A stretch of DNA of 64,000 nucleotides from the NCBI GenBank assembly GCA_963714705.1, contig CAVQPJ010000006.1:109845-173844 (forward strand), given 5' to 3'. The notes beneath the pieces are model-generated. The model was not told the origin of the DNA. It saw nothing but the letters and a program-made list of their open reading frames with translations, and did not search any database. Positions within the stretch are counted from its first letter, which is position 1; every line of letters starts with the position of its first letter. The stretch is from an uncultured Gammaproteobacteria bacterium (GTDB taxonomy: Bacteria; Pseudomonadota; Gammaproteobacteria; Steroidobacterales; Rariloculaceae). The translations under genes were made by a program, and so were the position numbers. Positions 26,561-30,683 of the stretch are shown piece by piece.

Positions 26561-28138
26561 ATGGCAACACCACCGGGAATTTCCGAACGCGATTTCGCAC
26601 GCGCGCTCGCCGAGCTGCGCAACGCCGTCGGCACCGAATGGGTGTTCACGTCGGACGCCGACATGAACCTCTATCGCGACGCGTACTCGCCGTTCAAAGG
26701 CGAAGCCGAGGATCGAGTCCCCTCCGCAGCCGTCGCACCCGACACCGTCGAGCAGGTGCAAGCCGTCGTGAGGATCGCCAACGCGCACCGTATTCCGCTC
26801 TGGACGATCTCGACGGGGCGCAACCTGGGCTACGGCGGCTCGGCGCCCGCCTATTCCGGCAGCGTCGTCGTCGATCTGAAGCGCATGAACCGCATCCTCG
26901 AGGTCAACGACAAGACGCACTACGCCGTCGTCGAACCCGGCGTCAGCTACTTCGATCTCTACCGCTACATTCAGGAACGCGGGCTGAAGGTCTGGATCGA
27001 TCCCGCGGATCCCGGCTGGGGTTCGCCGGTCGGCAACGCGCTCGAGCGCGGCGGCGGCCGCACGCCGATGCGCGATCACTGGAACGCCGTCTGCGGGCTC
27101 GAGGTCGTGCTCGCGAACGGCGAGGTGCTGCGCACCGGCATGGGCGCCATGGCGAATTCCGAGGTCTGGCATCAGTACAAGTACGGCTTCGGCCCGCTCG
27201 TCGACGGCCTCTTCTCGCAATCGAACTTCGGCATCGTGACGCGCATGGGCCTCTGGCTCATGCCTTCACCGGAGGGTTATCGCGACGGGCGAATCAACGT
27301 TGCGCAGCACGACGACCTCGTGCCGTTCATGGAGACGTACGCGTATCTCATGAACTCCGACATCCTGCGCGGCACGATGCTGCTCGAGAGCCCGCTCCTG
27401 AGCTATCACGTCTCGCAAGGCGGCTCGTTCTTCGAGATGCCCAGCGGCCCTTCGATCGCAGAGCTCGACGGCTTGGCGCGCGAGCGCAACCTGCCCTACT
27501 GGAGCGCCGAGCTCCGGTTCTGGGGACCGCCGACGCTCATCGACGCGCAATGGAACTACGTCAAGGAAAAATTCGGCGCGATCCCGGGCTCGACGTTCGC
27601 CGACGGCCGCCGCTACGTGTTCCCGGCCGACGTCGACCAGAACGACCCCACGCTCGCCGTCGCGCTCGGCACCCCGTCGCTCGGCGTGTTCGGGCTGCTG
27701 CAAGGCGGCGGCCACCTCGGCTTCTCGCCGATCATCCCGATGACGGGCGAGGCGGTCTTCAAAGCGCAGCGCGCGTTCGGGGAGCTCTACGCCGAGCTCG
27801 CCCTGCCCGCTGCGAATCAGTTCGCGGCGCTGCCGTGGTCGTACAACCCGCGCGCGCTCGTGCTGTTGTTCGGTTTGCCGATGTCGCGCGACACGGAACA
27901 GAACCGCCAGAGCCGTGAGATCTTCGAGCGCCTGGTCGAGGTCTCGGCCGAGAACGGCTGGGCCGAGTATCGAACGCACATCGCGTTCATGGACCAGGTC
28001 GCCGAGATGTACTCCTTCAACGATCACGCGATGCGGCGCTTCCACGAGCTGTTGAAGGACGCCGTCGATCCGAACGGCATTCTCTCGCCGGGCAAGTCCG
28101 GCATTTGGCCGCAACGTTTGCGCCGCAACCGGGCCTGA
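26561..28138 (+). CDS. VAO/PCMH-family FAD-linked oxidase (vanillyl-alcohol/eugenol oxidase-like)
   Basis: STGRNLGYGG, VEPGVSY, GP.VDGLFSQSNFGIVT, GGHLGFSP, EYRTH, DPNGILSPGKSGIW. Confidence 0.92.
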   Translation: MATPPGISERDFARALAELRNAVGTEWVFTSDADMNLYRDAYSPFKGEAEDRVPSAAVAPDTVEQVQAVVRIANAHRIPLWTISTGRNLGYGGSAPAYSGSVVVDLKRMNRILEVNDKTHYAVVEPGVSYFDLYRYIQERGLKVWIDPADPGWGSPVGNALERGGGRTPMRDHWNAVCGLEVVLANGEVLRTGMGAMANSEVWHQYKYGFGPLVDGLFSQSNFGIVTRMGLWLMPSPEGYRDGRINVAQHDDLVPFMETYAYLMNSDILRGTMLLESPLLSYHVSQGGSFFEMPSGPSIAELDGLARERNLPYWSAELRFWGPPTLIDAQWNYVKEKFGAIPGSTFADGRRYVFPADVDQNDPTLAVALGTPSLGVFGLLQGGGHLGFSPIIPMTGEAVFKAQRAFGELYAELALPAANQFAALPWSYNPRALVLLFGLPMSRDTEQNRQSREIFERLVEVSAENGWAEYRTHIAFMDQVAEMYSFNDHAMRRFHELLKDAVDPNGILSPGKSGIWPQRLRRNRA

Positions 28139-28155: not shown

Positions 28156-28185
28156 TTGACACCGCGCCGTTCGATCTTCGAGACT
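28156..28185 (+). promoter_or_regulatory. Candidate sigma-70 promoter for the ankyrin gene
   Basis: TTGACA (28156-28161), 18 nt, GAGACT (28180-28185); the -10 is imperfect. Confidence 0.45.
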
Positions 28186-28320
28186 AGCGCCAGCGCGCTC
28201 TGGGGCGCCTCCTGTCCGCGGCAAGGGAATTTTCCCACCCACCTCGTCCGAAGGGGCTTTATCTAAACCTCTTTCCGGCCTGCATTCAGCGGACGCCAGG
28301 CGATAACGGAAGGTGGTGTT
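28186..28320 (+). ncRNA. Putative structured cis-regulatory 5' leader RNA
   Basis: GCGCC 28187-91 pairs GGCGC 28204-08; long stem ACCTCTTTCCG 28267-77 with CGGAAGGTGGT 28307-17 and inner GCCTG 28278-82 with CAGGC 28297-301 buries the RBS just before ATG 28321. Confidence 0.55.
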
Positions 28321-30009
28321 ATGTCGACGCAATCCGCTGGCCGCACGCTCGGTGCCGCCGCAACCCTCGAATCCCTGAAGAAAGAAGCGAAGCGCTGGCT
28401 GAAGGCGCTGCGCGAAGGCGATGCTGCGGCGCGCGAGCGCTTGCGGCGCGTGCTGCCGAGCGCCGGCGCCGATGCCGGGCTGCGTGAGGTGCAGCACGCA
28501 CTCGCGCTCGAGCACGGCCTGCCGGGCTGGGCGGCGTTGAAGGAAGCACTCGCCGACCGCGCGCTCGCGAAACGCAGCGCCGGCGAGCGCGCCGACGACC
28601 TCCTGCATCACGCGATCGATCGCGCGGGCGGGCCGCTCGCGGCGCATATTTTGCGTAAGCATCCCGACGTTGCACGGTTCAGTGTGCACACGGCCGTCGT
28701 CGGCGGCGATCTCGCCGAAGTGCAGCGCCGGCTGGCACACGACAGCTCAGCCGCTTCGGCCACCGGCGGCCCGAAGAATTGGCAACCGTTGCAGTACCTC
28801 TGCTACGCGCGACTGCCGCTCGCGGAGCCGAGCGAGCACGCCGTTGCGATCGCGCGCGCGTTGCTCGACGCCGGCGCCGACCCCAACGCCAAGTGGAACG
28901 ACGACTGGGAGAATCCGTTCACGCTGCTCACGGGTGTCATCGGCGACGGCGAGCAACGCCATGCTCCCCATCCGAGCGCCGTCGAGCTCGCCGGGCTGCT
29001 GATCGAGCGGGGCGCTCAACCGTACGACACGCAAAGTCTCTACAACACGTCGTTGAGCGCGGACGATACGTTCTGGCTCGACTTCTTGTACTCGCGCTCC
29101 GAGGCAGCGGGCACAGCCGAACGTTGGCGCAGCAAGGAGGCGTGGCCCGCAAGCGGCATGCTCGACTATCTCCTCGGCAACGCCGTCTCGCGCAATCACG
29201 TGAAGCGGGTGCGCTGGCTGCTCGAGCGCGGCGCGCACGCCACCGCGCCGCACTCGTACAGCAAGCGCAATCTGCACACGGAAGCGCTGCTTGGCGGTTT
29301 CGCGGAGCTCGCGCAGCTGCTACTCGACTTCGGCGCGCAACCCGAACACCTCGATGACGTTCACGCGTTCCAAGCGGCGTGCATGAGCGGCGATCGCGCG
29401 ACGGCACTGCGCCTGCTCGCAGCGCATCCCGAGTACCGCCGTTTCCCGGGGCCCATGTATCAAGCGGGGGATCGCGACCGTGTCGACGTCGCGGAGATGT
29501 TGCTCCAGCTCGGCGTGTCGCCCGACGTCGAGCACGGCGGCTGGACCGCGCTGCACTCGGCTGCGCACAACAACGCCGTGCGCGTCGCGAAGCTACTCAT
29601 CGAGCACGGCGCGACGGTCGACGTCCGCGAGGCGAAGTACAAGTCGACGCCGCTCGGCCATGCGGTATGGGCGGGTCAAGCCGCGATGGTCGACCTGCTG
29701 AGCGGCGTCAGCCGCGACGTCATCGCGCTCGTGCGGGCCGGCAAGCTCGAGCGGCTGCGCGCCGTGCTCGACGCGGAGCCGGCGCTCGTTCAGGCGACTC
29801 GCGAAGGCCGGACGCCGCTCTATTTCCTGTCGCCGCCCGAGGAACGCGCGCTCGAGATCGCGGAGCTCTTAGTCGCCCGCGGCGCAGATCCCAAGTTCGT
29901 CGATGCCGACGGGCTCACGGCCGCCGACGCCGCCGCGAAGTCCGGTCTCGAAGAGCTCGCCGAACTACTGCGCGACGCACAATCCCCGGGCAAGGGGGTG
30001 CACACATGA
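28321..30009 (+). CDS. Ankyrin-repeat protein with small basic N-terminal helical domain
   Basis: N-terminal LESLKKEAKRWLKAL...VQHALALEHGLPGWAAL; ankyrin repeats LLDAGADPN, TALHSAA...LLIEHGA, TPLGHA, RTPL. Confidence 0.9.
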   Translation: MSTQSAGRTLGAAATLESLKKEAKRWLKALREGDAAARERLRRVLPSAGADAGLREVQHALALEHGLPGWAALKEALADRALAKRSAGERADDLLHHAIDRAGGPLAAHILRKHPDVARFSVHTAVVGGDLAEVQRRLAHDSSAASATGGPKNWQPLQYLCYARLPLAEPSEHAVAIARALLDAGADPNAKWNDDWENPFTLLTGVIGDGEQRHAPHPSAVELAGLLIERGAQPYDTQSLYNTSLSADDTFWLDFLYSRSEAAGTAERWRSKEAWPASGMLDYLLGNAVSRNHVKRVRWLLERGAHATAPHSYSKRNLHTEALLGGFAELAQLLLDFGAQPEHLDDVHAFQAACMSGDRATALRLLAAHPEYRRFPGPMYQAGDRDRVDVAEMLLQLGVSPDVEHGGWTALHSAAHNNAVRVAKLLIEHGATVDVREAKYKSTPLGHAVWAGQAAMVDLLSGVSRDVIALVRAGKLERLRAVLDAEPALVQATREGRTPLYFLSPPEERALEIAELLVARGADPKFVDADGLTAADAAAKSGLEELAELLRDAQSPGKGVHT

Positions 30010-30125: not shown

Positions 30126-30683
30126 ATGAGCCGCAAGTCCAGAGTCTGGTTGCCGCTGCTTGCGGCTGGTGGCGTCGCCCTCAGCGCGACGAGCGCGAGT
30201 AGCTCCGCCGCGGAAGCCGATAAGACGGGCTTCATCCCGGACATCACGATCATCGAGATCATGGAATCGATCGTCATGCCGTCGGCGCAGGCGATCTGGG
30301 ATGCGGTCAGCGTCGACGTGACGGCGCAAGGCCAAATCGAGAAGAAACCCGAAACCGACGAGCAATGGGCCACGCTACGGGCTGCGGCCGTGACGTTGGC
30401 CGAAGCGACCAACGCGTTGGTCATCCCGGGCCGGCACGCGGCACCGCCCGGCACCCAGTCCGCGAACCCGGACTCCGAGCTCGGCCCTGCCCAGATCGAG
30501 GCCCTGCTCGCCAAGGACCGGCCGGCGTGGGTGGCGCATGCGGCGGTGCTGCATGCGACGGCGATACAAGCCATCGGCGCCATCGACGCCCGCAACATCG
30601 ACGCAATCACCGAGGTCGGCGGCTCGATCGACGAGGCCTGCGAGTCGTGCCACTTGCAGTTCTGGTATCCCAACCAGAAATAG
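30126..30683 (+). CDS. Secreted class II (cytochrome c'-like) four-helix heme protein
   Basis: GGAGGGAG SD, signal peptide, single CESCH near the C-terminus. Confidence 0.8.
   Translation: MSRKSRVWLPLLAAGGVALSATSASSSAAEADKTGFIPDITIIEIMESIVMPSAQAIWDAVSVDVTAQGQIEKKPETDEQWATLRAAAVTLAEATNALVIPGRHAAPPGTQSANPDSELGPAQIEALLAKDRPAWVAHAAVLHATAIQAIGAIDARNIDAITEVGGSIDEACESCHLQFWYPNQK

Follow-up and report, generated by a model that had tools for sequence, protein, structure and literature searches.

The leaders of the E. coli alpha operon and of rpsO, which have the ribosomal proteins S4 and S15 as partners, respectively, are pseudoknotted and serve autogenous translational repression; the one for S4 is a double pseudoknot (PMC3616713, in excerpts). 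We here deal with a leader of about 130 nucleotides (nt; ~28192-28320) and the gene behind it, which encodes an ankyrin protein with a basic N-terminal domain. Both lie in a stretch of 64,000 nt from an uncultured gammaproteobacterium of the Rariloculaceae (assembly GCA_963714705.1, contig CAVQPJ010000006.1, positions 109,845 to 173,844), which we call the window and whose own numbering, on the plus strand unless marked otherwise, is used throughout. As far as the excerpts allow a comparison, the window leader resembles the S4 and S15 leaders in being a pseudoknotted, covarying 5' leader placed over the translation start region of the gene that encodes the presumed partner. The latter, however, work with ribosomal proteins, by entrapment of the ribosome and with coding sequence included, whereas the fold in the window ends before the AUG and directly pairs the Shine-Dalgarno (SD) site; as partner it presumably has a small domain that is found joined to unrelated proteins. 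Judged from sequence comparison, this leader is a real, widespread and structured class of RNA. It is apparently undescribed and closely coupled to a protein domain that has no name. Structure and coupling emerge from the comparison itself; binding and regulation we infer.

Some other RNAs come to mind. ZTP (pfl) and cobalamin riboswitches have a 5' domain onto which the loop of a 3' hairpin docks over a linker, and a kissing loop is coupled to how the ribosome-binding site is controlled. The window leader differs from them in having no Rfam match, another topology and consensus, and a tie to a protein domain instead of a pathway. The RNAs of type III toxin-antitoxin systems consist of pseudoknots repeated in tandem, with a terminator between them and the gene. 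In the window, by contrast, the model of the leader matches once, and no terminator-like site lies between promoter and gene. A possible precedent is cluster #630,527 of the COMPASS study, an unannotated covarying motif directly 5' of glyoxalase, flavin monooxygenase or NmrA-like genes, which was read as a shared 5' leader (bioRxiv 10.64898/2026.10.21.760802, text in part). Neither ankyrin nor kissing loops nor autoregulation is mentioned in that part of the text, which also gives no common N-terminal domain for the cluster; the cluster may overlap with the short or sister class of leaders described below, or be unrelated. A description of a leader-domain module was not found in the literature searched; the supplement of PMC11109978, with its 107 protein-binding candidates, and the figures of the COMPASS preprint were outside that search and may hold the motif. 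None of the module's terms sought occurred in the accessible parts of the supplements of PMC8632094 and PMC6429828, and the main text of PMC5737381 contains no glyoxalase, ankyrin or DUF1835. Rfam 15 yields no match in the window at the gathering threshold. A permissive search gave a single one, on the opposite strand, with an E of 1.9 and 13.1 of 36 bits, and at E up to 1 no match fell on any leader in 20 homologous loci. An earlier inspection of the letters alone, henceforth the sequence-only reading, had been unable to name an Rfam family for the leader, which holds for the window and these 20 loci. A sub-threshold malK-III match (32.4 of 50 bits) was seen at L004:2591-2680 (minus strand), away from the leader.

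In the predicted fold, a pseudoknotted 5' domain is followed by a variable linker and then by a 3' hairpin that pairs the SD site; a kissing-loop contact bridges the linker. The seven helices of the fold are mutually compatible; no nucleotide is used by two of them. The hairpin P1 (28195-28198 with 28205-28208; 86.9% paired, one of three counted pairs compensatory) holds in its loop the 5' strand of the pseudoknot PK1 (28201-28204 with 28238-28241), which thereby pairs with the segment after P3. PK1 supplies the top covarying pair of the all-pairs scan and, in an alignment to a model lacking its pairs, is 92.9% paired with all four pairs compensatory. The kissing loop is closed by P2, a stem of two base pairs (28211-28212 with 28220-28221; 95.8% paired, both compensatory) that by itself is not significant against the tree-aware null described below (E 0.3-2.9). 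From this loop the kissing helix PK2 (28214-28219 with 28289-28294) reaches the loop of the 3' hairpin. It is the sole helix detected by RNAalifold; its six pairs are all compensatory, 99.5% are formed in an alignment to a model without pseudoknot pairs, and its best tree-null E is 0.05-0.075. The segment 28222-28237 comprises the junction J2/3 with two adenines (28223-28224), P3 (28225-28228 with 28233-28236; 91.9% paired, 4/4 compensatory) and A28237. A28223 is conserved in 91%, A28224 in 98% and A28237 in 87 of 98 leaders; the first two are the only nucleotides that are both unpaired and at least 90% conserved.

The linker (28242-28266) varies from 12 to 50 nt among homologues and has no conserved structure. 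A conserved hairpin therein was considered and rejected: the folding energy equals that of shuffled sequence (-0.01 ± 0.18 kcal/mol, n = 96). The 3' hairpin (28267-28317) is built from P5a, which pairs the anti-SD (28267-28277) with the SD strand (28307-28317), and P5b (28278-28282 with 28297-28301), which closes the 3' loop. They are 79.1% and 89.5% paired, respectively; P5a is the weakest of all helices, with many G-U pairs and register shifts. The anti-SD:SD duplex nevertheless amounts to -10.3 kcal/mol with its own partner versus -7.1 kcal/mol with mismatched ones. Folded alone, the 3' stem of the window reaches -20.6 kcal/mol.

The window leader by itself shows no unusual stability (z = 0.73; 150 of 200 shuffled sequences fold equally well), so the evidence beyond chance is comparative. 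This comparative support starts from a structure-blind MAFFT alignment of 59 leaders that were selected by their protein and share a mean identity of about 50%. In an all-pairs covariation scan, complementary pairs from five helices rank within the top 13 of 5,926 pairs. Over the 31 pairs of the fold, which was picked on this same alignment, 88.9% of the cells are paired and 27 pairs are compensatory; none of 500 shuffles scored as high, and slid registers gave 41-47%. PK1 and PK2 together have 96.9% of their cells paired and 146 compensatory cells versus 30 in shuffled controls (100-row alignment, model without pseudoknot pairs). A home-made tree-aware null with 40 replicates is stricter than shuffling. 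On the structure-blind alignment it leaves only four pairs at E ≤0.05 (two of PK1, one each of P3 and PK2) and none of P5a, P5b, P1 or P2; on a 99-row model-fitted alignment, with one half copy dropped, eight pairs remain, among them the P1 pair 28197-28206 (E 0.025), and the best PK2 pair stands at 0.075.

A promoter appears to belong to the unit. The -35 hexamer reads TTGACA (28156-28161); the predicted -10 hexamer GAGACT (28180-28185), 18 nt further on, is weak, and a strict promoter scan did not call the promoter of the window. Among 97 homologues, TTG[AC][CA] occurs in the matching 16-nt interval in 47, with a peak 35-41 nt 5' of P1, versus 1-5 in six control intervals; TAnnnT occurs in 68, with a peak at 12-15 nt, versus 0-7 in control intervals. 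From these motifs a conserved promoter of the sigma70 type is predicted, with a start 1-3 nt before P1, i.e., at ~28192 in the window. Because of this spacing the leader motif is likely the entire 5' untranslated region, and the upstream GCGCC (28187-28191) is likely not transcribed.

Much of this had been noticed in the sequence-only reading. The TTGACA is where it had been seen, the GGGAA/TTCCC inverted repeat (28225-28229 and 28232-28236) is there, and so is the long 3' stem (28267-28282 with 28297-28317), with a 5-nt bulge and one U-U mismatch, that buries GGAAGGTGG directly 5' of the ATG at 28321. The proposed GCGCC/GGCGC stem was misplaced: GCGCC lies at or before the predicted start, and the register conserved in homologues is that of P1 (95, 98 and 86% paired in three columns). 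A transcription start downstream of the stems would have spoken against the proposal; the predicted start lies 5' of all of them. Conservation and covariation, whose absence would likewise have counted against it, are both found in homologues. The two pseudoknot helices had escaped attention.

The leader family is widespread, again by sequence criteria, and conserved in structure. With residues 1-90 of the window protein as query, 17 matches were obtained among 61 related genomes, 10 of which had any; one match is a paralogue from the genome of the window itself. In 16 cases the upstream region is evidently similar, and in one (L010) a short version of it is present. A 16-sequence profile retrieved further genes from three phyla and five single genomes and matched 10,117 protein clusters at 50% identity. 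An RNA-only pattern has at least 121 matches across GTDB, with record titles from Acidobacteriota, Gemmatimonadota, Actinomycetota, Alpha-, Gamma- and Deltaproteobacteria, Planctomycetota, Fimbriimonadaceae and Eisenbacteria. The family was seen in at least eight phylum-level groups. Among its carriers are the cultured Bosea sp. CRIB-10 (L110) and Rudaea cellulosilytica (L086). Three records are plasmids. Viral contigs served as a control: one of 66 loose-pattern matches is full-length, and this sole one comes with the domain. The idea of a phage-borne element was dropped in view of this count and the lack of any relative by protein.

Where the RNA was searched first, the domain nearly always followed. 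Among the pattern matches listed, 115 of 121 have it within 600 nt downstream; of the other six, three are cut at locus ends and three are deletions or breaks (L069, L118, L119). The pattern was derived from the subfamily of the window, and related sequences are not independent. All 60 pattern loci with long flanks and outside the training set gave full-length model matches. A whole-genome model search of the 61 relatives returned 35 matches in 14 genomes, namely 16 known ones, one half copy and 18 new ones. Of the latter, 17 precede the domain, and L241 retains only its first ~18 residues; with 11 of 11 from Gemmatimonadota the new matches come to 28 of 29. Among RNA-first matches, no intact leader was found before an intact unrelated gene without the domain; the exceptions are deletions. 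Starting from the protein, 78 distinct genes (duplicates, five RNA-first loci, three PF20066-type and three spurious matches omitted) comprise 66 with a full leader, four with a short or decayed one (L010, L031, L197, L211) and eight with none (L035, L038, L040, L042, L203, L204, L208, L214).

Some individual loci deserve mention. One genome (G006) has six model matches. In L241 (L015:814-940) an intact leader lies 540 nt 5' of another copy, and its open reading frame continues after ~18 domain residues with unrelated sequence. The genome of the window has a second leader (G000:C2:124354-124485; L013/L219) before a DUF1835-type-like gene that is frameshifted near residue 177, which reflects either a sequencing error or a pseudogene. 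At L006:1218-1318 (minus strand) a half copy, 5' domain only, stands back to back with an intact leader on the opposite strand and has no matching gene behind it.

The gene of the window (28321-30009) encodes 562 amino acids (aa). As had been claimed, it is an ankyrin protein with a basic, non-ankyrin N-terminus. The remainder (28561-30009) matches Pfam Ank_2 (E 6.6e-26), and the Foldseek matches listed for it consist of ankyrin and DARPin chains. For residues 1-90, Pfam gives no family, and the isoelectric point of residues 1-80 is 10.1 versus 5.8 for the rest. The full-length model is confident, with a predicted local distance difference test (pLDDT) of 92.1, a predicted template-modelling score of 0.85 and a well-formed N-terminal domain. 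The latter (28321-28560) is predicted by AlphaFold2 as four helices (residues 16-31, 35-44, 54-64 and 70-78; mean pLDDT 78.9). Foldseek with the domain gives no match at E up to 0.001, the best VIA-align Z is 4.1, and no natural PDB relative was found by sequence, which has no bearing on the novelty of the fold. Queried with a homologue, the ESM Atlas returned nothing but clusters without a name or this very domain joined to different partners, and NCBIfam matched PRK05973 weakly in 3 of 16 members.

This domain of ~70 residues is attached to a colourful collection of proteins. Ankyrin, LRR, DUF1835, LCM methyltransferase, VOC glyoxalase, beta-lactamase-like and APH-like partners were found, further Clp_N, zf-C4_ClpX, FliG_C, FliM and HTH_34; one of the partner scans covered 101 of 150 listed proteins. 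Several partners are substrate-recognition or adaptor parts of proteases (Clp_N, zf-C4_ClpX, LON_substr_bdg) or belong to the flagellar switch (FliG_C, FliM), as seen in P0006, P0011, P0019, P0022, L260, P0014 and P0030. By its distribution, the leader tracks the N-terminal domain rather than the ankyrin part. The proposal that the ankyrin repeats act as sensor or adaptor finds no support as a general rule, since the same leader and domain occur on many non-ankyrin proteins.

The domain carries a basic face of K20, K21, K24, K28, R31 and K74, the first five of which are spaced along helix 1 as turns of a helix require. Two copies of the domain occur in many proteins. In first copies, K or R stands at positions 20 and 24 in 98% and 95% of cases versus 22% and 35% of internal ones, whereas A23, A62, G66 and W70 are retained in internal copies (structural A, G and W at 85-97%). 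In 50 tandem proteins with both copies complete, the first copy is the more basic one in 47, equal in one and less basic in two. Among leaderless genes the basic face is largely lost in L035, L038 and L203.

The domain also has a family connection. The sequence-only reading had felt reminded of the glyoxalase superfamily's N-terminal domain; the kinship is real and the relationship remote. The window protein does not match PF20066 (Glyoxalase_8) at E up to 1 and stays below the cut-off of 23.7 bits; 8 of 16 aligned homologues match it weakly (best E 4e-4). An hhalign comparison with the N-terminal part of PF20066 gave a probability of 98.1% over 59 columns, with a four-sequence set that included the bridging L213. 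The domain profile retrieved PF20066 proteins, and L213 both passes the cut-off (25.2 bits) and carries the double-pseudoknot leader. By these profiles, the domain is remotely related to the N-terminal ~55 positions of PF20066 and is not a member. Both share the pattern of helix 1 plus AxxxG..W; an inserted helix sets them apart. No paper on PF20066 was found in the literature searched.

PF20066 genes have a leader of their own (L044, L045, L047, L252-L265), a sister RNA in which a 5' hairpin is accompanied by kissing strands (GCYYGC and GCRRGC) that show compensatory changes; the motifs YGGYGAA and GCA are conserved in it. Eleven of 12 aligned sister leaders show complementary kiss strands in register, with compensatory changes, and the twelfth (L265) is misaligned. 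They do not match the double-pseudoknot model, nor did Rfam match in the three loci scanned. A short variant precedes domain-plus-VOC genes at L010:1720-1804 and L031:1723-1805 (both minus strand). It keeps P1, PK1 and P3, has a closed hairpin in place of the kissing loop and misses the 3' domain, which suggests that the 5' domain is the minimal unit.

What could all this be good for? On balance we lean towards autogenous repression: the domain would bind its own leader and hold the SD-pairing fold shut, so that each gene represses its own translation. Co-distribution and the selective retention of the basic face support such binding indirectly. The changing partners behind the domain also speak for this reading, as does the sister RNA of PF20066-type relatives, which has the same kiss. 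Transcription would start at P1, from a promoter whose motif is conserved and whose start is predicted. The 5' domain of P1, PK1, P2 and P3 would form, as its covariation indicates. Past the linker, the P5 hairpin would cover the SD site while its loop kisses that of P2; the two may well coexist because they share no nucleotide and the loop sizes fit a kissing geometry. The first domain copy would then bind the docked fold, presumably via K20, K21, K24 and K28. Unbound RNA, finally, would have to undock or breathe enough for initiation, which is the weakest step. Promoter, leader and domain would thus constitute a portable cassette that provides a concentration set-point for any protein fused behind it.

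Several observations weigh against autogenous repression. Promoter, leader and N-terminus are physically linked, and fusions move all of them together, which inflates the co-occurrence of RNA and domain; linkage explains the joint movement, but neither two pseudoknots kept across phyla nor a copy-specific basic face. The 3' hairpin is stable alone among homologues (mean -23 kcal/mol), and freeing the SD site costs 6.5 ± 3.5 kcal/mol, so the closed state may need no protein. Two candidate helices of an open state were rejected: the anti-SD with J2/3-P3 shows no co-adaptation (-5.83 for own versus -5.78 for mismatched partners), nor does the 3' strand of P1 with that of P5b (-7.57 versus -7.60). 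In L204, a gene with no leader, all five basic positions are retained, as are three of them in L040 and L042. The 50 tandem proteins of the library stand without DNA context, and the profiles, having been derived from first copies, bias the comparison of first with internal ones. Finally, 59 of the 66 leaders counted from the protein side were in the training set of the model; the other seven scored 27.5-87.7 bits, and L039 was judged by eye.

The most serious competitor, if an unlikely one, makes the leader a translational riboswitch that senses some small molecule or ion, with the domain as a co-inherited sensor or tag for the same signal that does not bind RNA. The layout is alike: a 5' domain, a variable linker and a 3' hairpin docked by loop pairing, with the SD site in the last helix. 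The kiss core and the two adenines are near-invariant, and the leader precedes varied enzymes. As to an expression platform, an SD-pairing helix is present and no co-adapted alternative to it was found. Two conserved unpaired nucleotides are, however, few for a small-molecule pocket. The downstream genes have the domain in common, not a pathway, and the leader was not found intact before an intact unrelated gene lacking it, deletions apart. The loss of the basic face in internal copies would be left unexplained.

Quite improbable appears a lasting ribonucleoprotein, in which the domain does bind the RNA but the leader, either intact or after processing, serves the protein as cofactor or inhibitor, the pairing of the SD site being of secondary importance. 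Pseudoknot antitoxin RNAs act in this way in type III toxin-antitoxin systems. It would fit that just one compatible fold, and no co-adapted alternative to it, was found, that the coupling with the domain is one-to-one and that the 5' domain persists alone in the short variants L010 and L031. The co-adaptation of anti-SD and SD does not, nor do the absence of repeats or a terminator between RNA and gene and the lack of a common catalytic activity among the partners.

We give still less credit to a reversed sign or another actor, i.e., that the domain opens the SD hairpin in a positive feedback or that another cellular factor reads the fold. This would suit a 3' hairpin that is closed by default. 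A fold of the window without P5b is, moreover, about equal in energy (-43.6 vs -42.8 kcal/mol), and the nested minimum of 98 homologues contains P5b in 49, paired kiss strands in 29 and neither in 20. Yet every covarying helix fits one closed state, and known protein-bound pseudoknot leaders, as excerpted, repress (PMC3616713). Hardly credible is a static translation dampener or RNA-stability element that hitchhikes with promoter and N-terminus: linkage, a stable SD hairpin and the missing open-state helix are compatible with it, but a dampener needs P5 only. Across eight phylum-level groups it would not keep two pseudoknots that covary, along with a stem of 2 bp, nor would it keep a copy-specific basic face.

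Two further genes flank this one. Upstream (26561-28138) lies a FAD-linked oxidase (FAD_binding_4, FAD-oxidase_C), which was not seen at any other of 331 loci, all with short flanks. Downstream (30126-30683) follows a 185-aa open reading frame without Pfam match that has a CxxCH motif at its end and is likely a cytochrome c.

Autogenous repression can be extended, tentatively and with considerable doubt about the whole, to an as yet undescribed superfamily of portable RNA-protein feedback cassettes. A new four-helix RNA-binding domain, with its more than 10,000 clusters at 50% identity and PF20066 in addition, would have been grafted on unrelated proteins together with at least three leader classes, the full double pseudoknot, the short 5' domain and the PF20066 sister, so as to set the concentration of these proteins. 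When the partner, be it ankyrin, LRR, Clp_N, the ClpX zinc finger, the Lon substrate domain or FliG/FliM, engages its target, the protein would be drawn off its own mRNA and more of it would be made.

Should the leader prove to be a riboswitch instead, the class would be an orphan of common occurrence. Should the domain bind it, a function would be obtained for PF20066 and for a very large domain family that has no name, and a widespread double-pseudoknot RNA class missing from Rfam would be added. Since a genome may hold several diverged pairs, partner specificity can be tested directly, and such pairs may provide compact orthogonal feedback parts. Each of the known protein-bound leaders belongs to a single RNA-binding protein; here, bacteria would autoregulate arbitrary proteins by means of a detachable unit of RNA plus tag.

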